NCBI GenBank assembly: GCA_964386095.1
Contig: CAYLQM010000001.1
Coordinates: 4,372-68,371 of the forward strand
Direction: 5' to 3'
DNA length: 64,000 nucleotides
Source: an uncultured Methanosarcinales archaeon
GTDB lineage: Archaea > Nanobdellota > Nanobdellia > Woesearchaeales > JASKKU01
The notes below the pieces were generated by a model. That model did no database searches. It saw only the letters and a program-made list of their open reading frames with translations, and was not told where the DNA came from. Of the stretch, positions 1,709-42,813 are shown piece after piece. Positions within the stretch are counted from its first letter, which is position 1; the number at the start of each line of letters is the position of its first letter. The position numbers and the translations under genes are program-made.

Positions 1709-1867
1709 TTGTAATTCCTTAAAAGATTATACAAAGATTAAAGTTAAAAATTCTAAGATTGTTCAAGCAGGCAGTTCTTTAAAGAAAATTTTATAAATCC
1801 AATCAGGAACCTTCATTTGAGGTGAATTCAAAGCGAATGTGGCTGATAAAGCTGAACGCTATAGAGG

Positions 1868-2422
1868 TTGATTGAAATGGGTTTTTATAAGTATGTTAGG
1901 CAAGTTTGGAAAAGACCAAAAGATTCTTTAGGTGAGTTGTACAAGGAAAGATTAGTTAAGTGGAGAAGAGAGCCGGCAGTAATCCGATTGGAACGACCTA
2001 CGAGGATTGATAGAGCAAGGGCTTTAGGTTATAAAGCCAAGCAGGGTTTTGTGATTGTTAGGGTGCGTGTTAAAAGGGGCACCAAAAAACGGGAGAAAAT
2101 TTCCGGCGGTCGAAGGTCCAAGACGAGCAGAAAATGGAAAACGCTTAAGGTTAATTATCGTTATGTTTGTGAGTTGAGGGCTCAGCGCAGGTATCCAAAC
2201 CTTGAAGTCCTGAATAGTTATTGGGTAGGTAAAGATGGCAAGCATTATTATTATGAAGTAATTTTGGTTGATAAGAATCATCCTGCCATTATGAACGACA
2301 AGGATATCTCATGGATTGCTAACAAGAAGAACGTTAGAAGAGTGTATAGGGGTTTAACTAGTGCGGCAAGAAAATTTAGAGGTCTGAGATGGAAAGGCAA
2401 GGGCGCTGAGAAAGCACGATAA
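1868..2422 (+). CDS. rpl15e: 50S ribosomal protein L15e
   Basis: The 184-aa basic protein is collinear with the L15e family. N-terminus is MGFYKYVRQVWKRP. Other matching stretches: ...RLERPTRIDRARALGYKAKQGFVIVRVRV..KRG and ...YWVGKDGKHYYYEVILVD. Confidence 0.9.
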   Translation: MIEMGFYKYVRQVWKRPKDSLGELYKERLVKWRREPAVIRLERPTRIDRARALGYKAKQGFVIVRVRVKRGTKKREKISGGRRSKTSRKWKTLKVNYRYVCELRAQRRYPNLEVLNSYWVGKDGKHYYYEVILVDKNHPAIMNDKDISWIANKKNVRRVYRGLTSAARKFRGLRWKGKGAEKAR

Positions 2423-2507
2423 ATTTATTTTTCTTTTTGCTATTTCTTTTATTTTAGGTAGTTTTATTTTAGATAGTTTTTTAAAACCTTTTTCTTTCTG
2501 AAAAACT

Positions 2508-3605
2508 ATGCCTGATTACTATGAGAAGATTAAGGAGTTAGAGAGAGAATTGTCTGAAACAAAGTATAACAAACGTACTCAGCATCATATTGGTTTAGTT
2601 AAAGCTAAGATTGCTCAACTTAGAGAGAAGATTGAACAGAGAACGAAATCTTCTTCCGGCGGTCAGGGTTATGCTGTTAGAAAGAGCGGTGATGGTACGG
2701 CAGTTCTGGTAGGTTATCCATCTACGGGTAAATCTACTCTCTTAAATGCTTTAACGAATGCAAATTCAGAAATCGGTGATTATGCGTTTACTACTTTGGA
2801 TGTGATTCCAGGTTTGCTTGAATACAAATTTGCAAAGATTCAAATTTTAGATGTTCCAGGTATTATTGATGGCGCAGCATTAGGGAGAGGTCGAGGTAAG
2901 GAAGTTCTTAGTGTTGTAAGGAATTGCGATTTAGTTATTATGGTTGTTGATGCAACTAATCTTAAGCAATTTGAGTCCCTTAAGAGAGAGCTTTTCTATG
3001 CAGGAGTTAGATTGAATAAACACAAACCAGATGTGATTATTAAACGTACAATGTCTAATGGAATAAAAATCCTTAAAACAGTTAAGCTCACGAAAATAGA
3101 TGTCTCAACCATAAAGACGATTCTTCATCAATTTCGGATTATGAATGCAGATGTTCTGATTAGGGAGAACATTAACGATGATGATTTGATTGATGTAATC
3201 GAGGGAAATAAAAGATATCTGCCAGCCATTACTGTTGTTAACAAGGTTGATTTGGTGAATGAACGAATTCTTAAGGAAACTAGAGAAAAAATAAACCCTG
3301 ACATCTTGATTTCTGCTAAAAACAAATTTCATATAGAAGAACTTAAGCAGTTAATCTATGATAAGTTCGGATTTATACATATCTTTATGAAGGAACCTAA
3401 CAAAGAGCCAGACTTGGAAGAGCCATTGATTATGAGGAAAGGTTGTACAATTGAGGATGTCTGCAATAAAATTCACAGGAGTTTTGTAAAAAATTTTAAA
3501 TACGCGCGGGTTTGGGGAAGAAGTGTAAAATTTCCAGGTCAGTTGAAAGGTTTAAAACACAAACTTTCCGAAGGAGATATTGTGGAATTGCATATCATTA
3601 ATTAA
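2508..3605 (+). CDS. drg: Drg-type (Obg family) GTP-binding protein with a C-terminal TGS domain
   Basis: G1 motif GYPSTGKST, G3 motif DVPG, G4 motif NKVD. The N-terminus is coiled-coil, and the C-terminal TGS-like region is KGCTIEDVCNKIH...VWGRSVKFPGQ. Confidence 0.85.
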   Translation: MPDYYEKIKELERELSETKYNKRTQHHIGLVKAKIAQLREKIEQRTKSSSGGQGYAVRKSGDGTAVLVGYPSTGKSTLLNALTNANSEIGDYAFTTLDVIPGLLEYKFAKIQILDVPGIIDGAALGRGRGKEVLSVVRNCDLVIMVVDATNLKQFESLKRELFYAGVRLNKHKPDVIIKRTMSNGIKILKTVKLTKIDVSTIKTILHQFRIMNADVLIRENINDDDLIDVIEGNKRYLPAITVVNKVDLVNERILKETREKINPDILISAKNKFHIEELKQLIYDKFGFIHIFMKEPNKEPDLEEPLIMRKGCTIEDVCNKIHRSFVKNFKYARVWGRSVKFPGQLKGLKHKLSEGDIVELHIIN

Positions 3606-3712
3606 TTGCAAGCATATTAAAAATATACCTTTTATTAAATCGCTAAACATAGATACAACTTAATTGAGTGGTTACAAATTGACTCTTTTTAATTCTTTTG
3701 AAAATCTTAAAT

Positions 3713-3856
3713 ATGGCAAAAACTCCTAATATAATTATGAGCGTGGATATCGAATGGGATGAGATGGTAATCCCTATGAGGAAGGGGTATATAAAATATG
3801 TACGGGAGTTTGTCAGGAATGAAGGTCGTGAAGACAACGAATCAATGGAAGAGTAA
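3713..3856 (+). CDS. Possible small protein (47 aa, MAKTPNIIMSVDIEWDEMVIPMRKGYIKYVREFVRNEGREDNESMEE). It is below the ORF-track size cut-off.
   Basis: Clean ATG..TAA ORF in an otherwise empty 300-bp gap, with non-low-complexity composition. No homology recognised. Confidence 0.2.
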   Translation: MAKTPNIIMSVDIEWDEMVIPMRKGYIKYVREFVRNEGREDNESMEE

Positions 3857-3919
3857 TTCAGTCTATTCTATGCTTTTCATTAAGATTTGGTTTGTTTGTG
3901 AGATGGGACTCTGTCCTTT

Positions 3920-4429
3920 TTATTCTCTTTTAACTTTGTACAGTCCTGTGGACATTAATAATTCGTATCTGTTTTTGAGTTCTAGGTAGATGGAATCCTT
4001 TTTTATTGAAGTGGCTTTTGGATAAACTTCGCTTAACAAGAAATCGTAAACTTTTCTGGCAGAGTTATACCGTTTTTCCTGAAAGTATTCGTCGAACAAT
4101 CCCAAACTCACATCGCATATTTCGTTAGAAAGGGCGTTTTTGTTTTCTTCAGAAAGTTTAGAATAATTCTCTTTTATGATATCGAAGAGTTTGATTGTTT
4201 TTGAAACTCTGTGCATGCTTATTAACTGCGAAATCTTTTCAACACATTTATTTATCTTTTTGAGGTAACGATTGTTCTTTTTTGTTTCGATTTTTATTCG
4301 TTTTAATTCTTCTTTTGTTTCTCTTTCCAATCTTGAGTTGATTCGTATTCTTTTGATGATAAGAGTAATCTTTGCAATTATTAATAATATGACGAAAGTA
4401 ATGCCTATGGATAATAAGTACCGATTCAT
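3920..4429 (-). CDS. Hypothetical membrane-anchored coiled-coil protein (169 aa)
   Basis: N-terminal TM helix (LLSIGITFVILLIIAKITLII) followed by a Lys/Glu-rich helical region. Lies downstream of rad50 on the same strand. Confidence 0.4.
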   Translation of the reverse strand: MNRYLLSIGITFVILLIIAKITLIIKRIRINSRLERETKEELKRIKIETKKNNRYLKKINKCVEKISQLISMHRVSKTIKLFDIIKENYSKLSEENKNALSNEICDVSLGLFDEYFQEKRYNSARKVYDFLLSEVYPKATSIKKDSIYLELKNRYELLMSTGLYKVKRE

Positions 4430-4517
4430 TTTTTATTTGATTTTTTGTTTGTTCACGAATTGGGTAAAACCAAATAAAATATTTGTTTATTACTTCCCAG
4501 TCAATTAAATTATGAAA

Positions 4518-6980
4518 TTATGCTTCCAAAACTCTGCTGATTGAGTTTTCTTTGTATATCCGGAATTTGTTGTCAACGAAGCTTTCTATTTTACTTTCGT
4601 GACTTACTAAAATTATCTGTTTAATATTTAATTCGTTTAAGACTTCTCTTACACGGTCCATCTGTTCGGTTGAGAATCCGTCGGTGGGTTCATCTAATAT
4701 AATTACATCCTTGGTTTTTATTTCAGATAAAAGATCGTTTATTACTTGATTAAGTGCTAATCTGTATGCCAAGGCAATGCTCGTTTTTTCGCCACCGGAT
4801 AGATCAAAGATTGAAGCATCATAACCGTTCTGTCTAACCCTTGGAGAAAACGATAAGTCCAAATCAACCTTAAGCGTTTCTTCATCAATAAGTTTAGATA
4901 ACCAGTTCTTAAACAGTTCATTAAATCGATGGTACACCCTTGCAAAAAGGTGTTTTTCAATGTTTTCAACCATGGGATTAAATACTTCGGATAACCAGCT
5001 TAAGATTTTATTCATTTCTTTTAGTTTTTTAATTGCAATTTCTTTCTCATTAATCTCTCTATTTAATTTGTCTATTTCTTTTTTGAGCTGATCCAGCATT
5101 TCGGTTTTCATAGATTGTTCAGATAAAAATCTGCTCAAATTCTCTTTAATTTTAAGGAATTCGTTCTCGACGGGTTTGAGTTCTTCGATTTCCTTTTCAA
5201 CAACTTTTTTCCTATCAGAACATTCTATTTGTTTATGATTTAACTCTTTTATTTTCTCTTTTAACTCCTGAATCCTTGAAATGTTTTCTTGCACCCTTTT
5301 TTCCCTTTCCTTTATGAGAAGCTGCTTTTTTTCTATTATGTTTATTGTTTCAATTTTTTCTTCAAGCCTGGTAAGATGTTTTCTTTTTTCTTCAATGTTT
5401 GTTGATGTGAGAATTTTTAATTTTGTTTTGATGTCTTTTTCTCTGCTTAACAATCCATCTTTGTGAATAATCTCTTTGCTGCCGTTTGAAATTTGTTTTT
5501 TTAGACTGGAAATCTGTTCAGAAACAATTAAAGACTTTTCATATCTTCTTTTCAATTTATCTAATTCTTTTTCAACAGATTTAATATTCTTTGAGATTTC
5601 TTCTATTTCTTTTGATAATTCCTGATTTTGTTCTTCAAGTTGCTTTATTTTAGAATTGTTGTCTGTTTGAATCTTTGTTTTATGCTCCTCATTGACTTTT
5701 TGTAAGCACATGGGACAAACCTTTAAATCCGAAACCTTGCTAATTATGCCTTGAAGTTCAACAATCTTGTGTTTGTTTGAATAAATTTTTTTCTCGATCT
5801 CCTGCTTTTCAAGGTTCAGTGTTGCTTTGACCTCCTCTTTTGTTTTAATTTGTTTTTTTAATATTTCGGGGGTTTCGATTGCACTCTTCTTCAATTCCCC
5901 GAGTTTTGATTTTAAGGATTTCAACTGTTCTTCATCGCGTTCAATTCTTTTTAATTGTGATTCAATGTTCTCAAGTTCTTTTCTTAGCGAGTTTATTTTT
6001 AGGCTATGTTGCGTTATTTCATCATTCAGTTTTTTGATTTCAGAAGAAATCTTGTCTTTGTTTTCTACGGATACTTTATAAGTTGAAATCTCATGCTTTA
6101 ACGACCCTAATTCTTTTTTCAGGGCTTCGTTTTCATGTTTTCTATTGATTGTTTCCCTGGCAACAAGCTCTGTTTCTGATTGAATCCTTGATGATAATTT
6201 CTCAAGCGTCATTAATTCCTTTTCTTTCTCGTTTAGCTTTTTTATTTTTTCATTGAGTTTTTCTTCCTGTTCTTTCAATTGTTTAATCGTGTTCTCAAGA
6301 CTTTTTATCGAAGAATTCAATTCTGAAAGATTTTTGTTCTTTTCTTTGAGTTCCTGTTTTTTATTATCAATATCAGAACAGTAACCTTCAAGATATTCTC
6401 TTTTCTCTTTAAGCAGTTGTTTTAATATTAGAGAATTGTCCCTGATTTTTTTGTATTTCTCAATCTGAAATATCTTTCTGAAAGTCTCTTTTCTTTCATC
6501 ATCGTTTATATTGAATATTTGCTTCATCTGTTCTTGAGGCGTGTACACAGTGAACCTGAAAATGGGAGATTTGGATTTACTTACAAGTTCTGATGGATAA
6601 TTTAAAAGACTGATAACTTTTTGTTTAAGTTCTGTGGGACTAAGAACGCTTTTTATTCCGTTGATTATGATGTAACTGTTTTCTTGTTTTATGCTATTTT
6701 TTAATCTCTTCAGATTTCTTCTAATAATGATTTTTTCATTGTTAATCATCAGAGTAAGTTCAACATACCCTGACGATTCTCCTCTTCTTAATAACGAGCT
6801 TGCTTTGAGGGAATCACCACTGGTGCCAGTCCCAAACAAAGCGAATTCAATAGCTTGAAGAATAGTGCTTTTGCCTGCCCCAATATCGCCCAAAAAAAGA
6901 GTTTTTCCTTTTGGAATTTCAATCTCGGTTGTGTCTTTATAGCTTCTAATGTTTTTAAGTTTAACAGATTTAATTATCAT
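4518..6980 (-). CDS. rad50: DNA double-strand break repair ATPase Rad50 (SbcC/SMC-like)
   Basis: N-terminal Walker A FLGDIGAGKSTIL. Long coiled coil with a central CxxC zinc hook (VCPMCLQKV). C-terminal ABC signature LSGGEKTSIALAYRLAL, Walker B IILDEPTDGFS and His-switch VSHE. Confidence 0.8.
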   Translation of the reverse strand: MIIKSVKLKNIRSYKDTTEIEIPKGKTLFLGDIGAGKSTILQAIEFALFGTGTSGDSLKASSLLRRGESSGYVELTLMINNEKIIIRRNLKRLKNSIKQENSYIIINGIKSVLSPTELKQKVISLLNYPSELVSKSKSPIFRFTVYTPQEQMKQIFNINDDERKETFRKIFQIEKYKKIRDNSLILKQLLKEKREYLEGYCSDIDNKKQELKEKNKNLSELNSSIKSLENTIKQLKEQEEKLNEKIKKLNEKEKELMTLEKLSSRIQSETELVARETINRKHENEALKKELGSLKHEISTYKVSVENKDKISSEIKKLNDEITQHSLKINSLRKELENIESQLKRIERDEEQLKSLKSKLGELKKSAIETPEILKKQIKTKEEVKATLNLEKQEIEKKIYSNKHKIVELQGIISKVSDLKVCPMCLQKVNEEHKTKIQTDNNSKIKQLEEQNQELSKEIEEISKNIKSVEKELDKLKRRYEKSLIVSEQISSLKKQISNGSKEIIHKDGLLSREKDIKTKLKILTSTNIEEKRKHLTRLEEKIETINIIEKKQLLIKEREKRVQENISRIQELKEKIKELNHKQIECSDRKKVVEKEIEELKPVENEFLKIKENLSRFLSEQSMKTEMLDQLKKEIDKLNREINEKEIAIKKLKEMNKILSWLSEVFNPMVENIEKHLFARVYHRFNELFKNWLSKLIDEETLKVDLDLSFSPRVRQNGYDASIFDLSGGEKTSIALAYRLALNQVINDLLSEIKTKDVIILDEPTDGFSTEQMDRVREVLNELNIKQIILVSHESKIESFVDNKFRIYKENSISRVLEA

Positions 6981-10760: not shown

Positions 10761-11576
10761 CTAAATTAAAGCGAGTGGTTCAATCTTCACAGAATTGGGA
10801 AGCTCGCCAAAATCACAATCTTTGCAAGCAGCATCTAAGGGTATGTAACCATCTTTGTTTTCATATCTGGAAGGATTTTTCAGTTTAATTTCTATGAAGA
10901 TGTGATTCTTTAAAAGCAGGTATCTTGATTCTATGCCTATGTGGGTGAACAAGGAAGCTAAAAGGACGCTTATGCCGTCGCAGTCTGCGGAACCTGATTT
11001 AAGCGTTATTTGAGGCGGTTCAATAAATTCTGTTTTTACTGGATCAGGAATGTATTGGATATTGTCCCTGACAAAAAAGTATATTGCCTTGGCATAACAT
11101 AATTCATTGTTGCCTTTTTTATACGGGCAGACCTGTGAAGCAATGTAATCGGCAATTGTTTTCAGTTCTGGTGAAATTCGCGTTCGATGTATTAATAGCT
11201 GTTCAACGATGCTTTGATTTGTTAACAACGGTTTAATGCTTAGATTGCTTAGGAATCCTTTGTCGTTGAGTTCTTTTAATGTAGGGATTTTCAGGGGTTT
11301 GTTTTCAGGTTCAAATATAGAATTTGGAATTATGAAAAAAACAATTATGGAAACAGCAATCAGAATCGCAATTAATCTAACAAAGAACCCTTTGTTTTCA
11401 TCAAGCGTTTGAGAGTTTTCGCTGTCTTCTGGAAAAATGGGCGTACTTTCTTCGTAGATTATAGAGGTATCTTTTGGTGCTCTGATTTGATTGTTCTTTT
11501 CATTCAATCCCCTTTCTTTTGAATCTTTCATTTTTGGATTTTTGACAAGGAATAGTGTATTCTCATAAGTCCACAA
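10761..11576 (-). CDS. Membrane-anchored transglutaminase-like cysteine protease domain protein
   Basis: N-terminal TM (LIAILIAVSIIVFFII). Transglutaminase-core signature GSADCDGISVLLASLFTHIGIESRY, with downstream His and Asp candidates. Confidence 0.6.
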   Translation of the reverse strand: MWTYENTLFLVKNPKMKDSKERGLNEKNNQIRAPKDTSIIYEESTPIFPEDSENSQTLDENKGFFVRLIAILIAVSIIVFFIIPNSIFEPENKPLKIPTLKELNDKGFLSNLSIKPLLTNQSIVEQLLIHRTRISPELKTIADYIASQVCPYKKGNNELCYAKAIYFFVRDNIQYIPDPVKTEFIEPPQITLKSGSADCDGISVLLASLFTHIGIESRYLLLKNHIFIEIKLKNPSRYENKDGYIPLDAACKDCDFGELPNSVKIEPLALI

Positions 11577-12193: not shown

Positions 12194-13288
12194 ATGGTAA
12201 CTATGAAAAAAAAAGAAATTAATTTTTACAAACCCTTGGCGTTTGTTTTGCTAATATTGATACTTTTAGAGTTGCAGTTTAAGTTTAATATATTCTCGGA
12301 CTTGAATGGGATTAAAAGAATGTTCGGTTCTCCTGAATCAGATAAGGTAATGGTTCTTGTAAACAGCGAGAAGATTTATCAGAGCGAGTTTAACGCAACA
12401 TATAACAGCTTGAAAATTGGAAATCCTGCTGTTGCCAAATCTGACGTTTTGCAGTTGTTGATAGAACAGAAGGTTCTCGTTTCCAAGGCGAAGTCTTTAG
12501 GCATTACCGTTAATGATTCTGAAGTGAAACAGTATCTTGACCAATATATTCAACAGGTTGGTGGAGAGCAACAGTTTGATTTTACTCTGAAATCTTTGAA
12601 TTTAAGCAAAGAGATGTTCGAAAATATGTTAAGAGAGCAAATATATATTCAGAAGCTGTTTGAACAATATTACTTTAATCAGATAGATATTGATGATAAC
12701 GAAGTTAATGATTTTGTTGAGCAACAGTTCGGTTCGGCGGATGCAGTAAACGATTCCGTTAAGCAAACTCTTAAGGAAGCGTTGCTTGCGCAAAAGAGAA
12801 TTATCTTTATCCAGGAAAAAGTTGATGAGCTTGTAAAGGAAGCCGACATCAGGTTTTTGGCAGATTTTGAAGATTATTCCGGGATGATTCCGTCTGATGT
12901 TGATGACTCAATTGCAATAAATGATAATTCCATTAAAGATGATAGCACTTTAAAAACGGTTCAAATTGATGTGCCTGAAGATAATTTGAGCATGCAGGGG
13001 AATCGGCAACTCAATTCAGATTTAAAAGAATGCGTGAAAAAGCAATCTGAAGATGTGGATTTTTTCATTATTTGTGATGATTGCGATATGTTCAAATCGT
13101 TTTTTGCTGACAAAGATAGGAAGGCATATATAGGAACTCCGGATGATGAAACTATTTCGTTGATTAAAAATTGTCTGTCCTCGGTTTATCAGGGTTATAT
13201 TCCGGAAGTTATCTGTTTGAATAACGGCAAGTCTTTGACAGATGATTTTGATTCAAAGCTGGAATCATTTTTTGAGGATTGTGTTTAG
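12194..13288 (+). CDS. Secreted SurA-N-terminal-domain-like chaperone with an acidic, Cys-containing C-terminal region
   Basis: Signal/TM LAFVLLILILL. VNSEKIYQSEF...LLIEQKVLVSKAKSLGITVNDSEV resembles the SurA/PpiD N-terminal chaperone domain. No PPIase motif. Confidence 0.4.
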   Translation: MVTMKKKEINFYKPLAFVLLILILLELQFKFNIFSDLNGIKRMFGSPESDKVMVLVNSEKIYQSEFNATYNSLKIGNPAVAKSDVLQLLIEQKVLVSKAKSLGITVNDSEVKQYLDQYIQQVGGEQQFDFTLKSLNLSKEMFENMLREQIYIQKLFEQYYFNQIDIDDNEVNDFVEQQFGSADAVNDSVKQTLKEALLAQKRIIFIQEKVDELVKEADIRFLADFEDYSGMIPSDVDDSIAINDNSIKDDSTLKTVQIDVPEDNLSMQGNRQLNSDLKECVKKQSEDVDFFIICDDCDMFKSFFADKDRKAYIGTPDDETISLIKNCLSSVYQGYIPEVICLNNGKSLTDDFDSKLESFFEDCV

Positions 13289-13360
13289 GAAACTTTGAAG
13301 ATGTTAATTTTTTGATATTGGAATATGCTCCTTGATTTTCAATGAGGGGTCCATCTTAAA

Positions 13361-15496
13361 ATGGGTGATAAAATGATAGAAGGGAAGAAACCTAGGATTA
13401 GATATAAGTCCAAGATCTTAAGGGAAAAAGGGAATAAAAAAGAAGTTGATCCGAAAGAACATTCTTCACAGGACCAAGGAAAAAACAAAAAAGAAAAACC
13501 TGTGACAGCAGAGCATAGAAAGAGTGAAATGAATAAAGAGCGGAATAAAGAGCATAAAACAACTCATTCATATCATGAATCAAAGAAAGAACGCAAATCT
13601 GAAGATGCTGAACAGCAGATATCAAAATCTGAACGCAGAAAAAGTAAGAAAACTAAGAAAACCAAGTTGAATGTGTGGGCAATTGTCTCTTTAATAGAGT
13701 TATTAATCCTGATATTCTTATTGGTATATCATCCTGGCGCTGCAAACAGTAATTCCGCAGGCAATAGGTCCTTAACAGGAGGAATAATAGGAATGGACAA
13801 CAATGAGAATATAAATATTGGTGAGACAAATAATAATGAAAAAAAGGCCGCGGTGGACTTTTATGTGATGGCTTATTGTCCTTTTGGGAATCAAGCAGAA
13901 GAATTCATTTATGATGTTTACAAAAGCATGAAAGATGCCGTAACTTTTAACCCAAGGTATGTTATTTATACTGACTATGCGGGCGGCAGCGAGGATTTTT
14001 GCATTGAAGACCCGGCAGATGGAAAAACTTATTGTTCTATGCACGGCATTCAAGAACTGCATCAGGATATTAGAGAACTTTGCGTGGCCAAATACTTTGG
14101 TATGGATGAATGGTTCGAGTTTGCAATTGCGATGAATGATAAATGCAACTCAGGAAATGCGGATACTTGTTGGGAAGGGGTTGCGAAAGACCTGAGTCTT
14201 GATGTTGGAAAAATAAAAAGTTGTGAGCAGGAGGAAGGGCTTGATTTGGTGAAGGAACAGTATGAACTGGATCAGGAGCATCAGGTTAGCGGTTCGCCAA
14301 CAATCTTTGTTAACGACGAACTTTATACGGGTTCAAGAAGTGCTGCCAGCATGATGACGGTTTTATGCAATTTAGATTCATTAAAACATTCAGATGCTTG
14401 TGAGGATATCCCAGTTTGCACTTCAGATTCTGATTGTCCTACAAAGGAAGGAAAGATAGCAAAATGTGAAAACCCAGGCACAAAGGAAGCTAAGTGTGTT
14501 TATACTGACGATGCAAAGGTAGAATTGATAGTGATTAATGATGACGAATGTCCAATTTGCGAAACCTCTGGAGTTATGATGACTAATCGGAGATACTTTT
14601 TGAATTTAGAGGTTAGAGAGGTTGAAGCAGATACAGCTGAAGGCAAAGAACTTATAGAGAAATATGGCATTGAACATTTGCCGGCTTACATTTTCAGTGA
14701 TAGTGTTACAAAGACAAATGCTTGGCAGGCGCAAGGTGTATCAAGATTCTTCAGGCAGTCCAAAGATAAGTATCTTTTAACTGATAAAGCCATAGGTTCA
14801 ACTTGGCCAGCAGACCCACAAGAAAGGCAGCAGTATCTAGATTTATTACAGAATTATGCTCAGCGCAACTTGGAAGTCTTGAACTACGGCTCAGGTAAAC
14901 CTAGATTGGATTACTTTGTTATGTCTTTTTGCCCTTATGGCAACCCTGCTGAAGAAGCTGCGGAGAAGATTTATTCTTTGTTGGGCGACAAAGTAGAGAT
15001 TGTTCCACATTATATCCTGTCCACAGATGGAAGCAGTTTGTCTTCGCTTCACGGGGTCCAAGAGGCCAATCAGGATGTAAGGGAGCTTTGCGCATTAGAC
15101 CTGTTTGGATTGAGAAAATTCTTTGATTTCGTTTTACAAGTTAATAAAGACTGCAATTCTGGAAATGCGGATACTTGTTGGGAAGATGCAGCTAAGAACG
15201 CGGGGCTTAGAAATGATGAAATTTCCCAGATAAAGAACTGCTTTGATACGAGAAAGTTTGAGATTGCAAAACAAGAGGCTGATTTGAACAATGAGCTGTA
15301 TACATTGTATGGAGGGCAACTTGTGCATCCTTCAGCATCCCCAACATTTTTGATAAATGGCGAAACTTATTCAGGCAGCAGGGATGCAAATGAAATAAAG
15401 AAAGAATTGTGCGCTCTATTTAACGACAACGATAAACCAACTGAATGCAGCGAAACAATTGAGACAACAGCATCATCACCATCAGGCACCTGTTAG
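13361..15496 (+). CDS. Membrane-anchored protein with two tandem DsbA-like thioredoxin-fold domains (CPxG variant) and a long basic N-terminal tail
   Basis: ~110-aa Lys-rich N-terminus, one TM (VWAIVSLIELLILIFLLVY), then two ~270-aa repeats. Each repeat has YCP(F/Y)GN, DKCNSGNADTCWE and a DsbA-type cis-Pro loop (GSPTIFVND / ASPTFLINGE). Confidence 0.55.
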   Translation: MGDKMIEGKKPRIRYKSKILREKGNKKEVDPKEHSSQDQGKNKKEKPVTAEHRKSEMNKERNKEHKTTHSYHESKKERKSEDAEQQISKSERRKSKKTKKTKLNVWAIVSLIELLILIFLLVYHPGAANSNSAGNRSLTGGIIGMDNNENINIGETNNNEKKAAVDFYVMAYCPFGNQAEEFIYDVYKSMKDAVTFNPRYVIYTDYAGGSEDFCIEDPADGKTYCSMHGIQELHQDIRELCVAKYFGMDEWFEFAIAMNDKCNSGNADTCWEGVAKDLSLDVGKIKSCEQEEGLDLVKEQYELDQEHQVSGSPTIFVNDELYTGSRSAASMMTVLCNLDSLKHSDACEDIPVCTSDSDCPTKEGKIAKCENPGTKEAKCVYTDDAKVELIVINDDECPICETSGVMMTNRRYFLNLEVREVEADTAEGKELIEKYGIEHLPAYIFSDSVTKTNAWQAQGVSRFFRQSKDKYLLTDKAIGSTWPADPQERQQYLDLLQNYAQRNLEVLNYGSGKPRLDYFVMSFCPYGNPAEEAAEKIYSLLGDKVEIVPHYILSTDGSSLSSLHGVQEANQDVRELCALDLFGLRKFFDFVLQVNKDCNSGNADTCWEDAAKNAGLRNDEISQIKNCFDTRKFEIAKQEADLNNELYTLYGGQLVHPSASPTFLINGETYSGSRDANEIKKELCALFNDNDKPTECSETIETTASSPSGTC

Positions 15497-15703: not shown

Positions 15704-17023
15704 ATGAAACCATCTTTAGAAAAAAAAGTTGAATCCGAGTATGACTTTTCAAGCGAGGAAAACCGTTCGAAAAATATTCTTAAGAAAGCTTTGCTTTGTG
15801 GAGCCGCAGCAGTTGCTCTTTCATCGTGTGGTGTCCGTCCAAACAACACCGCATTCAACCTTTATAACTTTAAAGTTGCCCAGTCAGGCGAGACAAATGA
15901 CAATATCTTTGTCGGTGATTCAATTCTTAGTTTTGATTTATCTTCGCCTGATGCTACAGAGGTTTATCTGCAAATCTACGGGAATGGTGAATTAATCCTG
16001 AAAGACACACTTAAGGCTTCGAGCAATGAAAATGAGGTTTATGCCAAAATTGAGGAGTATTTAGACCTTAGGGTTCCTGATATGAACCTTTTCCCTTACC
16101 AAATTTCAATCATAGCTACAACGCCTCAAAACCCTTCCATAAGTCTGGATTTCTCAACTGAATTAACAACTCCCATGCCAGTTTTTGGCAGAAAGCTTCC
16201 TGAATTGGTAAGTCGTTTGGATGATTTGCTGAATGAATATGTTTCAACAAAAGAACCTGAAGAAAGCCATTATTATTACTTTGTTGATAAAAGTGATGTT
16301 GAAGACGGTTATTATTTAAAAGCGCTTCTTTATGAGTCGTCCGATCTTTTTTTAAGAATTAGTGATGGACGGGGCGGAATTTTAATTTTAGAAGACTTCT
16401 TCCAGAAGCATTCACCTGATGCAACAATGATGCTGTATTCGGTGTGTGACTATCATCCATTTTTGCATTATGCTACAGCTACAGTTTCCGAAGCTTTAAC
16501 TTTGGCAAACATTGAACACATTATACTTGATTCATCACCTGATTTAAATCTTGTTGCTGCACCACTTCCTGAGGAGATTTTTAAATCTGTTAAAGAAAGT
16601 GACGACCCGACAGTTCATCCGTTGTCATCAGCAAAGTATTTCTCAGTTGGAAATAATAACAATGAACTTATCCTCTCTGAAAACTATTTCAAGGGAGAAA
16701 CTTTAAGCAAGGAAGTTCTTGAAAGATACACCTTTTTCAAGAATCGCGATGATTTTTTTGCGTTTAGCAACGAAACAGGCAACTTGTTAGCAATAGCAGT
16801 GGATATGCCATCGCCAAACTTGAGCAATGCTTCAGTGTTTTTGAATTCTCCTTATTTTTTCATAGGCTCTGTGCCTTCTTCAGAATTTTATCAGTCGCAG
16901 GAACAGATTCAGTTAGATGATGGCTCAATACTCAACTCTGTTTTGGATTTGCCTGTGGATTATAAGAATAAAATAAAGAACGCGTTGGATGAAGCTGAAG
17001 AAGACTTGAAAAAACTATTTTGA
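15704..17023 (+). CDS. Hypothetical secreted/lipoprotein-like protein (439 aa)
   Basis: N-terminal hydrophobic segment ending in a lipobox-like LSSCG. No recognisable domain. Confidence 0.45.
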   Translation: MKPSLEKKVESEYDFSSEENRSKNILKKALLCGAAAVALSSCGVRPNNTAFNLYNFKVAQSGETNDNIFVGDSILSFDLSSPDATEVYLQIYGNGELILKDTLKASSNENEVYAKIEEYLDLRVPDMNLFPYQISIIATTPQNPSISLDFSTELTTPMPVFGRKLPELVSRLDDLLNEYVSTKEPEESHYYYFVDKSDVEDGYYLKALLYESSDLFLRISDGRGGILILEDFFQKHSPDATMMLYSVCDYHPFLHYATATVSEALTLANIEHIILDSSPDLNLVAAPLPEEIFKSVKESDDPTVHPLSSAKYFSVGNNNNELILSENYFKGETLSKEVLERYTFFKNRDDFFAFSNETGNLLAIAVDMPSPNLSNASVFLNSPYFFIGSVPSSEFYQSQEQIQLDDGSILNSVLDLPVDYKNKIKNALDEAEEDLKKLF

Positions 17024-27032: not shown

Positions 27033-27479
27033 TTGAGAATGGTAATTTTATTTGATAAATTCAATTTGCCTGATGATATTTTGGATGTTATTTTCTCAAC
27101 CAATAATCAGAGAGCTGTCGCTAAGCTGCTTATGGAATACTTTAAGCAGAATGATGGGGTTCTTGATAAAAAGCAAATGTCCCTATTTGCTAATTCGCTT
27201 CATCTTGGCTTAATTTTTAAGGGGGATATTGAAGGCATTAAAAGTCATAAACCTTTGGTATATAATAAAAGGCAATTTTACGATAGAATTATTACCCCAA
27301 TGAAGAGCATGGGCCTAATTACTTATGATTTGTATGATAAAAAATATAAATTGGGCGGTGATTTTAAAACTCAAATGGCAAAGCTTGGCGAACTGTTTGA
27401 AAAGAAAATAAATGAAGAAAAGAAAGATATAAAGTTCTCTTTCTATCCTCCTGAAGAGATAAAACGAAAGTTACAATAA
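27033..27479 (+). CDS. Small winged-helix-like protein, paralog 1 (148 aa)
   Basis: ~50% identical to ORF 28258..28671 over ~120 aa. Shared blocks: MVILFD.(F/Y)NLP(D/E)DI..VIFST, MSLFA..LH, YNKRQFYDRI(I/L)TPMKSMG(L/M)I.YDLY.K.Y.L. Confidence 0.5.
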   Translation: MRMVILFDKFNLPDDILDVIFSTNNQRAVAKLLMEYFKQNDGVLDKKQMSLFANSLHLGLIFKGDIEGIKSHKPLVYNKRQFYDRIITPMKSMGLITYDLYDKKYKLGGDFKTQMAKLGELFEKKINEEKKDIKFSFYPPEEIKRKLQ

Positions 27480-28257: not shown

Positions 28258-28671
28258 ATGGTAATTTTGTTTGATATGTATAACCTGCCTGAGGATATCT
28301 TCGAAGTGATTTTTTCTACTAAACAACAGGCAATTGTTGCAAGGCAGTTGTTTAAAGAGTTTAAACACCATGGAGGAATTATGACTAAATCTGAGATGTC
28401 TCTTTTCGCTACGCAGCTCCACAATGGCGAATATGTTGCAAAAATAGATGAACCTCCATTCATTGGAAAGAAAGTAAAGTTATCATATAATAAGAGGCAG
28501 TTTTATGATAGAATATTAACGCCGATGAAAAGCATGGGGATGATTTATTACGACTTGTATAAAAAAACTTATTCGCTTTCGGACAATTTCAGCAAGCTTA
28601 TGCAGAAATTTGCAATCATGTGGAATCTGGAGTTAAAGAAACCATTGGGAAGTCCAATTAAGCGAGCATAA
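28258..28671 (+). CDS. Small winged-helix-like protein, paralog 2 (137 aa)
   Basis: Paralog of 27033..27479 (see that entry). Confidence 0.5.
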   Translation: MVILFDMYNLPEDIFEVIFSTKQQAIVARQLFKEFKHHGGIMTKSEMSLFATQLHNGEYVAKIDEPPFIGKKVKLSYNKRQFYDRILTPMKSMGMIYYDLYKKTYSLSDNFSKLMQKFAIMWNLELKKPLGSPIKRA

Positions 28672-33981: not shown

Positions 33982-34395
33982 TTAACAACAGTAAAACTCT
34001 TCTTGTTCTTTTTTGGTAACATCAAAAGGCACATCGTGTTTTTTCATATTTTCTATGAATTCCTTGTTTTCTTTAAGCTCAATTCCTTTTTTTACAAGAA
34101 TTGTCCTAATGGCTCTGAAAATAGTAGTGAGTTCAAGTTTGCTTGGACACAATTCCTCGCAGGCACCGCATAATGCGCATGCGTAAAATATTTTTGGTTC
34201 TATCTTTTTTGAATCAACGAGAATATTTTTCCCTCTGGGCGAGTAAGCTTCGTTTAGAAGAGTATTGAATACAGGGCAGATTTCTTTGCACAAACCGCAT
34301 CGCGAGCACAACTGCAACTTTTCCTGAAGTTCATTTAGCAGATTCTCAAGTTCTTCATCTTCAACTTCTGACAGGGATTTTGTTTCGGGTTCCAT
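33982..34395 (-). CDS. 2x[4Fe-4S] ferredoxin-domain subunit (GlcF N-half/HdrC-like)
   Basis: Two CxxCxxCxxxCP motifs (CSRCGLCKEICP, CALCGACEELCP). Confidence 0.65.
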   Translation of the reverse strand: MEPETKSLSEVEDEELENLLNELQEKLQLCSRCGLCKEICPVFNTLLNEAYSPRGKNILVDSKKIEPKIFYACALCGACEELCPSKLELTTIFRAIRTILVKKGIELKENKEFIENMKKHDVPFDVTKKEQEEFYCC

Positions 34396-34401
34396 TTTTT
34401 C

Positions 34402-35592
34402 TTAATTCTGACTGTTTAATTTTTCAGAGAGTGTGTTGAATAACTCTCTGTTGAATATGTTTTGAGGGTCGTATTTAAATTTTAAATTCGCAATATTTTC
34501 TAAGAAAATCTTATTGGCGAATTCAGCCTTCTTTAAACCGATTCCGTGTTCTCCCGACACTTTTCCGTTTAACTTTCCCACGAAAGAGTACATCTTTTTT
34601 ATGAGATCTTTTTGATTTTTCTTGAAACATGGATGAATTATGCCTGAACCAATATGACCAAAATAGGGTATATTATTTTTCTCAAGAAATCTTAAAAAAG
34701 GTTCAAGATTTTCTTCATCTATCTGCGGGTCTTCTATCAGGATAAAACCCTGCTCGGCAAGCGTGGGGTAAGCCTTTTCCCTTATTCTTAAAATTCTTTC
34801 GTATTCATCATCAGCGGTTTCATCTAATAATCCTGCAAGCAGTACAATTTTCTCACAGCCCAAGATTAATTGAGTGCTTTTTTTATCAATAACCTCGAGC
34901 ATAATGGTTTTGTCATTTTTCTTGTAGTGCTTCATATCTTTTAGCATGTCCTCTACATTTTCATATTCTTTTGATTCAATTTTTATGCGGGGTTTTTCAA
35001 TTAGCTTTAATTTTGCTTTAACAATTATGCCAAACGTCCCTTCAGAACCAATGATCTCCTTGGAAGCAATCCCGTTTCCATTCCCGTCTAAAAATAAAAC
35101 TTCATCAATCCAATTCTCTACTTTGCCGAATCTGAGACTCCAATTGCCTGCAGAATTGCAGTTAATCATACCACCGATGGTGCAAACTCTGTGAGATGAA
35201 GGAATTACAGGAAAAATAGTTCTCTTAAGCATTTCATTAAGGACATTGCATATAACACCAGGCTCAACAATTGCAAACTTTTCTTTTTCATTTATTTCTA
35301 TGATGTTGTTGAGTCTTGATAAGTCAGCAACAATTTCACTGCTTAAAGCATTTCCGACCAGATTTGTTCCGCTCCCTCTCGCAGTTATACTAACATTGTT
35401 GTTTTTACAAATTTTAATTATGTCTTTGAGTTGCTCTGCACTGGTAGGAAATACAACTATCTGAGGTTGAATAGAAATAGTGCTGGCATCCTGGCTGTAA
35501 GCATAAACCTCGATATCTTTGCTGAATTGTTTGAATTCTATTCTCTTTTTGTTGAATTCAATAGTTATTTTGGTTAATGTTTCTGAGTTCAT
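34402..35592 (-). CDS. FAD-binding oxidase subunit (GlcD/D-lactate dehydrogenase-like)
   Basis: FAD_binding_4-type N-terminus (PQIVVFPTSAEQLKDIIKICKNNNVSITARGSGTNLVGNA) and a C-terminal FAD-oxidase domain. Confidence 0.7.
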   Translation of the reverse strand: MNSETLTKITIEFNKKRIEFKQFSKDIEVYAYSQDASTISIQPQIVVFPTSAEQLKDIIKICKNNNVSITARGSGTNLVGNALSSEIVADLSRLNNIIEINEKEKFAIVEPGVICNVLNEMLKRTIFPVIPSSHRVCTIGGMINCNSAGNWSLRFGKVENWIDEVLFLDGNGNGIASKEIIGSEGTFGIIVKAKLKLIEKPRIKIESKEYENVEDMLKDMKHYKKNDKTIMLEVIDKKSTQLILGCEKIVLLAGLLDETADDEYERILRIREKAYPTLAEQGFILIEDPQIDEENLEPFLRFLEKNNIPYFGHIGSGIIHPCFKKNQKDLIKKMYSFVGKLNGKVSGEHGIGLKKAEFANKIFLENIANLKFKYDPQNIFNRELFNTLSEKLNSQN

Positions 35593-35598
35593 TTTTAA

Positions 35599-36351
35599 TT
35601 AAAGTCCTAATGCCCTAACTAATAATTGGGACAATTCTACGACAGGCAAGTTTTTTGAGTTTTCTTTTAGGTGAAGATAACAGAGAGGGCAACTTGTTAT
35701 CATTGCATCGACTTCCATTTCTTCAGCTTGCGACACTCTCTTTTGCGCAATTTTATTTGATAGGTCTTTATTAGTAGTTCTTACTCCTGCTCCCCCGCCA
35801 CAACAAAAAGAATTTTCTCTTGAGAAATTCATCTCTTTGAGTTCTTTTACGCATTTTAATATTATATTCCTTGGCTCATCATAAATGCTTGAATGTCTTC
35901 CGAGATGACATGGGTCATGATAAGTTACCTTTGCAAAGGGCATGTTTTTTACTTTCAATTTATATGACTGCTCGTTTAACAATTGTGTGAAATGTATTAC
36001 TTTGAAACCTTGCCTGTTCCAGTTTTCAAATTTTGAATATTCGTGATGGAATGTGTGATAACATGCAGGGCAATTAGTTAGGATGGTCTTAATACTTCTT
36101 GATGAAAAATATATGATGTTCTTTTCAATCTGATTTTTAAATACCTCTTCATACCCAGCATTGAATGCCGGGGACCCGCAACATTTGATTTCGTCTACAA
36201 CAATATAATCTAAATTAAGATAATCCAGAATCTTGATGTAATTTTGTTCGAGGTCCTTGCCAACATATCTGGTAAGACACCCGGGATAATATGCAAGATT
36301 CCCTGAGCTGGACCTTGAAAACAGGTTTTTGATGGAATCAATCAATTTCAT
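35599..36351 (-). CDS. CCG-domain subunit (GlcF C-half/HdrB/LutA-like)
   Basis: Two cysteine-rich CCG motifs (CCGSPAF and FCCGGGAG). Forms an operon with the FAD and Fe-S subunits. Confidence 0.65.
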   Translation of the reverse strand: MKLIDSIKNLFSRSSSGNLAYYPGCLTRYVGKDLEQNYIKILDYLNLDYIVVDEIKCCGSPAFNAGYEEVFKNQIEKNIIYFSSRSIKTILTNCPACYHTFHHEYSKFENWNRQGFKVIHFTQLLNEQSYKLKVKNMPFAKVTYHDPCHLGRHSSIYDEPRNIILKCVKELKEMNFSRENSFCCGGGAGVRTTNKDLSNKIAQKRVSQAEEMEVDAMITSCPLCYLHLKENSKNLPVVELSQLLVRALGL

Positions 36352-36412: not shown

Positions 36413-37672
36413 TTAAAGTATCATCTTAATTAGATAAATACCTAAACCTACCAAAACGATTCCCATAATTAATCTAAACCATTTTCGGTATTTTAATCTC
36501 GTAGCATTAACACTGCTAACGTCCCCGCCTTGTGTTATTGAATAAACTATGAATATTAATGGTAGGACAAATATGAAGTTATACACAATTAAAATAAAGA
36601 GGAGCCCGACAAAACTTATATTGTTAAGCATTAACAGCGAAATCAGGCCGGCATACATAATGCCCGAGCAGGGGAACTCAATGATGGTTATGATGATGCC
36701 CAATGCAATAATCGACGGCAACGAAAGTTTCTGAATTAATTCAGTGACTCTTTTCTTAGATTTGTCTGATAACGAAAAACTTATTCCCTTGCCGTATGCA
36801 AAGAAGTCTTTTATGTTAACAATTCCGGCGAAGATTACAATAATAGCGACTCCAAGCAGCACATAAAATCCAATAACACTGTTTACGGCTGTAGAAGTTT
36901 TGGTTAGAAACGCGTTAAGTCCCAGTGCTAAAAGCACACCTATTATGAAATATGAAACATAGATGGTCATAATGTATATCAAACTGTATTTTTTGATTCG
37001 TTTTTTGGCTTTGAACAGCATCAGTTGTGATATTAATAATGCGAGAACAGACATTATGCATGGATTGACTGAATCTGAAATAGCTGTAATAAACACTAAC
37101 CAGATTAATTTAAATGGGCTTAATTCAGATTTGTTATCTTGTAATAAGCTTAATTCAGACTTGTTATCTTGTGCTTTTTCCTCATTAACTTCTGCCATTC
37201 CTGAGTTTATGAAGTTTATTATTGGAGAATCGCCCTGGACAGTTATGCTGTTGGTTATGTTTGATAAATCGAGTTTAATTAATGTTGGTACGGCCCCATA
37301 GTAAAATTCTCTTTTGGATTTAAAGATATTGCAAAAACTCAGGAAGATTTCCCTGCCCGGCACATCATCAACTCCGAGTTTTATTACCTTATAACTTGAG
37401 TTAAGGGAATCCAGCACGCCGCTTTCAACAACCTTTTCGCAATGCGGACAGGTCCTTGAATAAAAAAACAGGATGTTTGTTTTTTCCGGTTCAATTTTTT
37501 CATCAAGAAAAGTTTGGCTTTCGTTAGACAATTCAGGAAGTTCAATTGAAAGAGCTATGCTTGAAGGCATAATTAAGGATATAGTTAACATTACTAAGAA
37601 AAGTGTTAAAGTAAAAAAAGTTGGCCCATTGAACTGCAAATTTTCCTTTTTGTTTGCTTTTTTCGTTTTCAT
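36413..37672 (-). CDS. Thioredoxin-fold domain fused to a CcdA/DsbD-type transmembrane thiol:disulfide electron-transfer domain
   Basis: N-terminal signal-anchor plus CPHC thioredoxin motif. C-terminal polytopic domain has the two conserved DsbD-core cysteines (SDSVNPCIMSVL and IEFPCSGIMYAGL). Confidence 0.6.
   Translation of the reverse strand: MKTKKANKKENLQFNGPTFFTLTLFLVMLTISLIMPSSIALSIELPELSNESQTFLDEKIEPEKTNILFFYSRTCPHCEKVVESGVLDSLNSSYKVIKLGVDDVPGREIFLSFCNIFKSKREFYYGAVPTLIKLDLSNITNSITVQGDSPIINFINSGMAEVNEEKAQDNKSELSLLQDNKSELSPFKLIWLVFITAISDSVNPCIMSVLALLISQLMLFKAKKRIKKYSLIYIMTIYVSYFIIGVLLALGLNAFLTKTSTAVNSVIGFYVLLGVAIIVIFAGIVNIKDFFAYGKGISFSLSDKSKKRVTELIQKLSLPSIIALGIIITIIEFPCSGIMYAGLISLLMLNNISFVGLLFILIVYNFIFVLPLIFIVYSITQGGDVSSVNATRLKYRKWFRLIMGIVLVGLGIYLIKMIL
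37118..37174. repeat. Near-perfect ~28-bp tandem duplication inside the Trx-CcdA gene, encoding QDNKSELSLL/QDNKSELSPF
   Basis: gcttaattcaga(t/c)ttgttatcttgt occurs twice, 30 bp apart. Confidence 0.6.
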
Positions 37673-42700: not shown

Positions 42701-42813
42701 TTTATCCGTCCATAACTTCTGAAATTATGAAAGCTTATGCTGAACTCCAAAAGAAGTTTAGGGCAGCGAAGGGCGAGGAATTAAGATTAAACAAACCGTC
42801 GTATTATGGTTAA
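39739..42813 (+). CDS. cdc48: Cdc48/VCP-like AAA+ ATPase (N domain + D1 + D2) with a large insertion in the D1 lid
   Basis: N domain ([23 protein letters not shown]). Two Walker A motifs GPPGTGKT and two Walker B motifs (IIFIDEIDA / VIFFDEIDA). SRH regions ([21 protein letters not shown] / [21 protein letters not shown]). It is 1024 aa against a usual ~740. Confidence 0.85.

Follow-up and report, generated by a model that had tools for sequence, protein, structure and literature searches.

A membrane-anchored DsbA/GILT-like protein of DPANN archaea with two CPxG sites and a conserved C-terminal cysteine

Here we describe a gene at 13361..15496 on the forward strand of a 64,000-nucleotide stretch of contig CAYLQM010000001.1 (hereafter the window, meaning the whole stretch analysed, to which all coordinates refer unless a locus is named), which derives from an uncultured archaeon placed by GTDB in the Woesearchaeales. 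The gene encodes a membrane-anchored, three-domain protein of the thioredoxin superfamily with 711 amino acids (aa) plus stop; the sole record of an identical protein is a 93-kb metagenomic contig (P0001). Based on sequence comparison and structural modelling, the product is very probably an extracytoplasmic thiol-disulfide oxidoreductase of DsbA/GILT fold. We modestly favour the fuller reading in which this outward-facing enzyme carries its resolving cysteine on a C-terminal swinging arm, and we regard a reductive or isomerising direction of electron flow as evenly poised.

Domain architecture, fold and conservation

The protein begins with a Lys/Glu/Arg-rich tail (aa 1-103; 13361..13669), whose composition (27 Lys, 14 Glu and 8 Arg) predicts a cytoplasmic location; the N-terminal tails of homologues are shorter. 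A hydropathy scan placed a single transmembrane anchor directly after it (aa 104-123, NVWAIVSLIELLILIFLLVY; 13670..13729), the only strongly hydrophobic segment of the protein, and all 23 cysteines lie downstream of this anchor. Following the positive-inside rule, we predict an N-in/C-out topology with everything after the anchor outside the cell. A preliminary description of this DNA had read a Lys-rich tail of about 110 aa and one transmembrane segment tethering the remainder outside the membrane, and our analysis bears this out, the outward tethering as a prediction.

The same description had proposed two homologous repeats of about 270 aa in tandem. Their homology is clear (35% identity over 218 columns, E=7e-45, in a BLASTP comparison of aa 151-380 with aa 481-711), but self-alignment and the structural model reduce them to about 190 aa each (aa 161-347 and 511-696), and they are not adjacent. 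The first repeat, Domain 1 (13841..14401, forward strand like all features of the gene), has a DsbA/GILT fold in the model and carries CPFG at the active-site position (C173-P-F-G, nucleotides (nt) 13877-13888), an S-M-H-G-x-x-E motif and a G-S-P-T cis-Pro loop; its probable structural Cys pairs are C214/C225, C241/C288, C262/C270 and C336/C347. It is followed by a beta-hairpin linker (aa 348-383; 14402..14509) that is modelled as two strands with a predicted local distance difference test (pLDDT) score >90; its four cysteines, C353, C359, C369 and C379, are invariant in 120/120 of the best homologues, mostly proteins of about 600 aa from metagenome-assembled genomes (MAGs) of Woesearchaeota and Nanoarchaeota. 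Domain 2 (aa 384-470; 14510..14770) is a small thioredoxin/PDO-like domain with a canonical CxxC, C397-P-I-C400 (nt 14549-14560), and a candidate cis-Pro, P441; all three residues are invariant in the same 120 homologues. A helical linker leads to the second repeat, Domain 3 (14891..15448), again modelled with a DsbA/GILT fold, with CPYG at the active-site position (C524-P-Y-G, nt 14930-14941), the motif S-L-H-G-x-x-E-x5-R, W607, an A-S-P-T cis-Pro loop and the likely structural pairs C577/C627, C598/C606 and C684/C696. Its invariant columns hold when it is aligned with 45 single-domain relatives. The protein ends in a flexible 15-residue tail (SETIETTASSPSGTC; 15449..15493), the final residue of which, C711, stands in a G-x-C motif.

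As first described, the active sites read AYCPFGN (C173) and SFCPYGN (C524), the cis-Pro loops GSPTIFVND and ASPTFLINGE, and both repeats have an extra Cys pair (C-NSGNADT-C; DKCNSGNADTCWE and KDCNSGNADTCWE).

A DsbA fold had been suggested for the repeats, and the AlphaFold2 model, built for aa 150-711 from a 117-sequence alignment, is in line with it (pLDDT 94.3, predicted template modelling score 0.83, with pLDDT <50 in the first six and last four residues only). Both repeats are modelled as a thioredoxin fold with an inserted helical cap, as in the DsbA family, and C173 and C524 stand immediately N-terminal to helix 1 of their domains, the canonical active-site position and the helix N-cap at which they had been expected. 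The model therefore supports a DsbA/GILT-type thioredoxin fold in both repeats and the placement of the CPxG Cys directly ahead of helix 1; the closest structural neighbour of the CPxG domains is GILT, whose type of fold they share. S312-P313-T314 and S660-P661, invariant in 120/120 homologues, are followed in the model by the strands at residues 165-168 and 513-516; we assign the cis-Pro loops by sequence and strand position, not by bond conformation.

The profile matches were more scattered. The sole Pfam match of the protein above cut-off is VSR_TRX (PF25011; 49.5 vs 27 bits, in two stretches), and VSR1 is its best sequence-profile match in the PDB (E=1.8e-12). It falls below the cut-offs for DSBA (16.8 vs 25.6 bits) and Thioredoxin_4 (20.3 vs 23.2 bits), and a Pfam scan of the protein itself gave no GILT match. 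On the other hand, the homologues P0055 and P0007 exceed the DSBA cut-off of 25.6 bits with 61.2 and 59.8 bits, homologues score 64.7 and 63.8 bits for GILT (PF03227; cut-off 22.4) and also pass Thioredoxin_4, and single-domain relatives reach 22-28 bits for GILT. A profile of the family matches GILT at E=5.6e-7, with S-L-H-G-x-x-E lying over CQHGELEC and the cis-Pro loops in register. Of the GILT signature CQHGxxECxxNxxxxC, the His, the Gly, the first Glu and the last Cys (C241/C577) are kept and the first two Cys are absent. Domain 2 matches the thioredoxin 2lst in the PDB (E=1.4e-3), and over this domain the family profile matches Pyrococcus PDO (1j08, E=4e-6; 1a8l, E=7e-6). NCBIfam holds no model for the CPxG family and returned weak sub-threshold matches only, and its members are annotated merely as 'DsbA family' or 'hypothetical'.

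The replacement of the resolving Cys by Gly had been taken as genuine conservation, and wider comparison confirms this. Of the 120 best homologues, 118 have the motif [SA]-x-C-P-[YF]-G at repeat 1 and all 120 have it at repeat 2. Scanning one genome per species for the pattern [FY][VT]M[SA][FY]CP[YF]G returned at least 600 stretches, 592 of which were confirmed as relatives. The archaeal carriers are DPANN lineages (Woese-, Nano-, Pace-, Aenigmat-, Micr-, Iain-, Alti- and Parvarchaeota) and the bacterial carriers belong to the Candidate Phyla Radiation (CPR)/Patescibacteria (Moraniibacteria, Saccharibacteria, Microgenomates and Dojkabacteria); a few other archaeal MAGs also carry the confirmed pattern. 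CPxG is therefore family-wide, as the alignment proposed in the preliminary description was meant to establish, and not a product of degeneration. A pseudogene or a sequencing slip is excluded, with CP[YF]G kept in both repeats of close homologues and at no fewer than 592 loci. In the literature we examined on disulfide systems and DsbA proteins of DPANN archaea and on CPYG motifs, the family is not described, nor is a combination of CPxG with a conserved terminal Cys arm; the only CPYG match there, Sinorhizobium Grx3 with its Grx-MauE architecture, is unrelated.

Seventeen cysteines, an odd number, are invariant (query numbering 173, 241, 288, 336, 347, 353, 359, 369, 379, 397, 400, 524, 577, 627, 684, 696 and 711). 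The others vary in pairs: C214+C225 and C262+C270 occur in the query clade and C257+C274 in the majority, and the variable C598+C606 are jointly lost in P0209. Even C577+C627 are jointly lost in one homologue (P0170). Because such cysteines are gained and lost two at a time, they probably form structural disulfides. One sub-lineage (P0130, P0154, P0160, P0185, P0204, and L015 and L020 at about 1440-2430) has a canonical DsbA domain (DFQCPFC) in the Domain 1 slot, which suggests that this slot performs ordinary thiol-disulfide exchange. In L015 and L020 a VKOR-type thioredoxin-like segment lies just upstream of the canonical-DsbA variant and may be fused to it.

The C-terminal cysteine and its likely partners

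At E<=1e-3, an exhaustive HMMER search with Domain 3 returned 1352 representatives. Besides tandem proteins, the best 150 matches include about 100 single-domain proteins, a type that accounts for 170 of all collected sequences. These proteins, 215-400 aa long, have a Lys-rich N-terminus and a transmembrane segment, followed by about 100 aa of beta-rich ectodomain, a single CP[YF]G domain and a tail made of Ser, Ala, Gly and Thr that ends in G-x-C plus 0-4 residues; most of them have no CxxC at all.

We then considered the tails of 368 collected sequences, in 357 of which CPxG is the last domain. A Cys lies within the last five residues in 352 of these 357; among the closest homologues, C711 is conserved in 120/120 and G709 in 109/120. 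The spacer from P-x-x-C to the terminal Cys measures 13-24 aa (mode 14) and is never shorter than 13, 65% of it is Ser, Ala, Gly or Thr, and nearly all tails have Gly at position -2 of the terminal Cys. Tails average 16.8 aa in tandem and 14.5 aa in single-domain proteins. The smallest members contain six cysteines: that of CPYG, two pairs and the terminal one. Furthermore, 151/160 single-domain proteins have an even number of ectodomain cysteines, and 140/154 tandem proteins an odd one.

Given this co-occurrence and the Cys parity, repeat 2 appears to be a two-Cys system with a relocated resolving Cys, and we lean towards the terminal Cys being the redox partner of the CPxG Cys in the last domain. 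On the simplest reading of the counts, the Domain 1 CPxG Cys would be the odd one out. Consequently, the duplicated monothiol domain initially proposed would hold for repeat 1 and not for repeat 2, and an invariant CxxC domain stands between the two. Since the tail is common to archaea and CPR bacteria, it is unlikely to have an anchoring role specific to either domain of life.

A redox-active Cys on a C-terminal arm has a precedent in thioredoxin reductase. Closer in fold is FrnE (Deinococcus radiodurans DR_0659), a DsbA-like reductase in which cysteines on a flexible C-terminal tail come within reach of the active site: crystals revealed a disulfide between Cys244 and Cys22, and regeneration depends on the tail (PMC8945050). 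Unlike the protein described here, which is predicted to face outward and has CPxG and a single terminal Cys, FrnE resides in the cytoplasm and retains CxxC along with two tail cysteines (CxxxxC); the likeness is one of mechanism.

A candidate electron donor is encoded 21 kb from the main gene, on the minus strand (36413..37672). In its translation, a signal-anchor and an exported thioredoxin domain (CPHC) are joined to a polytopic domain of about eight hydrophobic segments with two membrane cysteines (NPC and FPC). The preliminary description had named this product a thioredoxin-CcdA fusion. The exported thioredoxin and a CcdA/DsbD-like domain are indeed present, but the only profile match above threshold is Pfam SfLAP (41.4 bits, cut-off 35), a family of the LysE/DsbD clan; the NCBIfam match to a DsbD-like model is weak (E=1.8e-5) and a PDB sequence search with the product gave no CcdA match. 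Adjoining this gene on the same strand, at 33982-36351, are three consecutive genes that we read from their translations by eye: they encode a 137-aa protein with two Cys clusters resembling Fe-S motifs, a 396-aa protein that may be a FAD-binding oxidase-like enzyme and a 250-aa Cys-rich protein with CC-G motifs, a set resembling a GlcDEF- or Lld-type oxidoreductase.

That the fusion could supply reductant, as had also been suggested, is weakened by its distance in the window and strengthened by another locus. Among about 90 loci taken into the neighbourhood survey, L076 (Woesearchaeota) has three genes in a row on the same strand: first a tandem CPYG gene (1861-3597), then one homologous to the fusion (3646-4974; E=1e-28 to that of the window) and last one for a small exported thioredoxin (4975-5391), with a gap of 48 nt and then none. 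In L013, a fusion of glutaredoxin (Grx) with a CcdA-like domain lies 3 kb upstream of a CPYG-family gene. Moreover, a small exported thioredoxin like those fused to VKOR in bacteria (E=2.7e-25 to 3kp8) was found at nine loci, in the adjoining gene or <=3 kb from the matched domain, and small cytoplasmic Grx or thioredoxin/thioredoxin reductase genes stand near several single-domain members, a weak signal. In the 64-kb window we found no further CPYG paralogue, no VKOR-type thioredoxin and no small Grx, and neither there nor in the inspected flanks a VKOR or DsbB.

Considering these results, we propose the following model. Domains 1 and 3 would each use the nucleophilic CP[YF]G Cys and the cis-Pro loop, both lacking the second Cys of CxxC, and the tail would loop back into the groove at the active site of Domain 3, so that C711 could form a reversible disulfide with the CPYG Cys. 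The arm could also carry redox equivalents to monothiol Domain 1 and to the CxxC of Domain 2. The assembly would probably reduce or isomerise disulfides of exported proteins and might be kept reduced by the thioredoxin-CcdA-like membrane shuttle, elsewhere by the small exported VKOR-type thioredoxins. Electrons would thus pass from a cytoplasmic reductant to the CcdA-like protein, from there to the exported thioredoxin or Domain 2, and next to the CPxG/tail couple, which would hand them to the client. We suggest the reductase/isomerase direction because of the CcdA-like and exported thioredoxin neighbours, and it accords with GILT being a reductase.

Several observations weigh against this model. 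AlphaFold2 leaves the tail disordered and undocked, with pLDDT dropping to 66 and then to 37 in the final two blocks of ten residues (model residues 551-562), and one tail for two CPxG sites leaves Domain 1 without an assigned partner. A thioredoxin-CcdA-like gene adjoins the family gene at only one of the about 90 loci (L076) and lies <=3 kb away at one more (L013); no partner is universally adjacent among the inspected loci, many of which show unrelated housekeeping neighbours, and the nearby cytoplasmic Grx and thioredoxin reductase genes could reflect a mere loose clustering of redox genes. Finally, CxxS variants exist among animal GILTs and a mosquito CxxS GILT has no detectable reductase activity (PMC6060088), which makes a non-catalytic role conceivable here; no CxxG variant is described among GILTs in the literature we examined.

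Alternative explanations and known systems

If both repeats were truly monothiol, they might form mixed disulfides with clients, as in ERp44-like retention or in an isomerase, or act as a redox sensor, and the terminal Cys would make intermolecular disulfides only, for dimerisation or attachment to a surface protein. This agrees with the family-wide Gly at the resolving-Cys position of both repeats, with the lack of a candidate partner Cys for Domain 1, with the odd Cys count of tandem proteins and with the undocked tail. However, we consider it unlikely: the tail Cys accompanies a terminal CPxG domain in 352/357 proteins and the Cys count of single-domain proteins is even, a pure dimerisation Cys would need neither an invariant flanking Gly nor a spacer of >=13 aa, and the invariant CxxC domain together with the nearby thioredoxin and CcdA-like genes indicates an electron relay. 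An oxidase of the DsbA type is improbable too. It would donate the CPxG/tail disulfide, or that of the Domain 2 CxxC, to folding exported proteins and be re-oxidised through the exported VKOR-type thioredoxins by a further acceptor. Against it stand the absence of a VKOR or DsbB membrane domain from the window and the inspected flanks, the CcdA/DsbD-like nature of the adjacent membrane partner where there is one, and the reductase activity of GILT, the closest structural relative. In known systems CcdA/DsbD-like proteins export reducing power, and the organisms that carry the family are mostly anaerobes without quinones.

We hold three further explanations to be far less probable. A protection system of the ScsC type, in which the CPxG and tail cysteines bind Cu(I), or copper-induced disulfides are repaired, is very doubtful, since a metal-ATPase neighbour was found at 2 of about 90 inspected loci only, none is near the main gene in the window, and ScsC keeps its CxxC. 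The two neighbours are P1B-type heavy-metal ATPases (HMA plus E1-E2 ATPase) near single-domain CPYG genes, one directly upstream in L011 (1695-3944) and one about 3 kb upstream in L008 (1-1859); they may link the CPxG family to copper stress, a weak signal. The logic of 2-Cys peroxiredoxins, with a nucleophilic Cys, a resolving Cys on a C-terminal arm and recycling by CxxC, recalls a thiol peroxidase-like or sulfenate-handling enzyme, whose CPxG Cys would be oxidised by peroxide or bear a sulfenic acid or persulfide, be resolved by the tail Cys and be recycled by Domain 2 and the CcdA-like shuttle. The invariant His, Glu, Arg and Trp near the motif and the thioredoxin, thioredoxin reductase and Grx genes close by in several loci would suit such an enzyme, which we nonetheless judge very unlikely, as the fold is that of DsbA/GILT with a helical cap and not that of peroxiredoxins or glutathione peroxidases, the peroxiredoxin PxxxTxxC motif and the glutathione peroxidase tetrad are missing, and no match to either family was obtained. 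Least credible to us are non-catalytic binding modules, comparable to the plant vacuolar sorting receptor domain, with purely structural cysteines. VSR_TRX is the sole above-threshold Pfam match, VSR1 the best PDB profile match, and the mosquito CxxS GILT lacks reductase activity; yet the helix-1 Cys, its adjacent Pro, the cis-Pro loop and the His, Glu and Arg are near-invariant across hundreds of distant sequences, and CxxC thioredoxin domains and CcdA-like proteins as fusion partners or neighbours typify catalytic relays.

The protein also differs from each known system that it resembles. The CxxC that defines the DsbA and GILT families is absent at both CPxG sites (CPFG and CPYG), and for this reason it is neither a strict DsbA nor a strict GILT. 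Where GILT has CxxC, it has CP[YF]G, and the signature cysteines are replaced (S-x-H-G-x-x-E); unlike eukaryotic GILT, it is prokaryotic (DPANN/CPR) and multi-domain, is tethered by a membrane anchor and bears a C-terminal Cys arm. Besides the CxxS GILTs, the single-Cys DR2335 is a known monothiol variant of the fold. Compared with the DsbA family (Staphylococcus aureus DsbA 3bci, Bacillus subtilis BdbD 3eu3; PF01323/PF13462), it lacks the second CxxC Cys, and no DsbB or VKOR partner is encoded in the window or the inspected flanks. In plant vacuolar sorting receptors, which bind cargo, the thioredoxin-like domain has no catalytic role and EGF repeats come after it; in contrast to that domain (VSR_TRX; PDB 8r4y, 9b1r), the protein has an invariant helix-1 Cys and cis-Pro and a free tail Cys.

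As in PDI, archaeal PDO and the DsbC/DsbG-DsbD (CcdA) pathways, several thioredoxin-fold domains are present in one chain, and as in the DsbD (CcdA) pathways, the likely electron donor would be a CcdA/DsbD-like membrane protein with an exported thioredoxin domain. We picture the protein as operating in the manner of PDI/DsbC-type enzymes of several domains, but assembled from units of GILT/DsbA fold. In contrast to PDI, PDO and DsbC, the order is GILT-like, hairpin, PDO-like, GILT-like, and only one of the three active sites is a CxxC; the dimerisation domain of DsbC has no counterpart.

Neighbouring genes and biological meaning

Directly upstream, a gene on the same strand (12194..13288) encodes a SurA-N-like protein of 364 aa, characterised by Pfam, Foldseek and orthologue alignment. 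It has an anchor at about aa 13-31, a helical chaperone domain at about aa 50-222 and a low-complexity linker. The SurA/PpiD-like assignment made at the outset is sustained by Pfam (SurA_N_3, 51.2 bits against a cut-off of 27.2, E=1.7e-13; SurA_N_2, 34.1 bits), and the confident part of its model finds Cj1289/PEB4 (6.5e-5) and SurA (about 1e-4 to 1e-3) in Foldseek; the AlphaFold2 pLDDT is 54.6 overall and reaches 75-89 for aa 50-220 only. An NCBIfam PrsA-like model matches over the chaperone part only (42.7 bits vs cut-off 303), and no parvulin/peptidyl-prolyl isomerase domain was detected (no Rotamase match at E up to 0.1). The C-terminus (nt 13025-13285) is a domain of about 85 aa with six cysteines invariant in five orthologues (C280, C294, C297, C327, C341 and C363); it has no Pfam match and an AlphaFold2 pLDDT <50. 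Its CDDC reads CDEDC in one orthologue and is thus not a strict CxxC. PpiD is likewise a membrane-anchored, extracytoplasmic protein. The N-terminal helical chaperone domain is common to SurA, PpiD, PrsA and Cj1289, but the upstream protein differs from these four in lacking a parvulin domain, in its unique 6-Cys C-terminus and in belonging to an archaeon without an outer membrane.

The proposal that the two genes form an envelope folding pair stands for the closest clade and fails beyond it. A SurA-N gene lies directly 5' of homologues with 56% (L004/L005) and 46% (L007) identity, in neighbourhoods that are otherwise different, and probably also on the P0002/P0123 contig. It is absent beside the more distant members L001, L003 and L006, and tblastn (E<=1e-4) found none in 80 further genome loci. 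A universal pairing is therefore excluded: the pair is a clade-specific module (>=46% identity) and not a feature of the family. In this clade, the SurA-N-like Cys-rich membrane protein could act as a co-chaperone or a dedicated client.

Directly downstream of the main gene, 15704-17023 (forward) encodes a 439-aa protein with a hydrophobic N-terminus ending in ALSSCG (lipobox-like) and no Pfam or NCBIfam match. Elsewhere in the window, two further apparently outward-facing Cys-dependent enzymes are encoded, a membrane-anchored transglutaminase-core protein (10761-11576, minus strand) and a DJ-1/PfpI-family protein with an N-terminal hydrophobic anchor (50647-51306, forward). Two paralogous reading frames without Cys, of 146 and 137 aa (27039-27479 and 28258-28671, both forward), have nearly identical N-termini (MVILFDKFNLPDDILDVIFS and MVILFDMYNLPEDIFEVIFS) and enclose an opposite-strand frame of 164 aa with a CxxC. 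A double AAA ATPase resembling CDC48/VCP, about 1020 aa long (39751-42813, forward), has, as read by eye, an apparent Lys/Glu-rich coiled-coil-like insertion between its ATPase modules (roughly aa 400-680). At 52630-55501 (minus), a Memo-AMMECR1 fusion (553 aa, N-terminal hydrophobic segment) adjoins a radical-SAM protein, which looks like an AmmeMemoRadiSam trio with two members fused, and the product of 56468-58642 (minus), 724 aa long, combines about 15 hydrophobic segments with an embedded domain like that of spermidine/spermine synthases (Pfam, 52.9 bits).

DPANN archaea and CPR bacteria are ultra-small, host-attached organisms with many Cys-rich surface proteins, and they appear to lack DsbB- or VKOR-type machinery. 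Their ways of folding, repairing or remodelling these proteins are, to our knowledge, scarcely described. With hundreds of members that are almost confined to DPANN and CPR, the CPxG family is a prime candidate for their envelope thiol-disulfide enzyme. We tentatively propose, with rather more reserve than we attach to the arm itself, that both groups share an undescribed extracytoplasmic redox module, a DsbA/GILT domain with a split active site whose arm would also shuttle electrons between domains or to exported thioredoxins and a CcdA-like transporter. If the arm model is true, it would be a second way of making a two-Cys active site on the DsbA/GILT scaffold, and the CPxG Cys, the tail Cys and the Domain 2 CxxC offer mutable targets. 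The family also provides prokaryotic relatives of the eukaryotic GILT and VSR-TRX domains; possibly no other prokaryotic family stands closer to GILT and to the thioredoxin-like domain of plant VSRs. Altogether, the CPxG family represents a known kind of enzyme in a conserved variant with a distinctive taxonomic range, and the mechanism put forward here for it is plausible.

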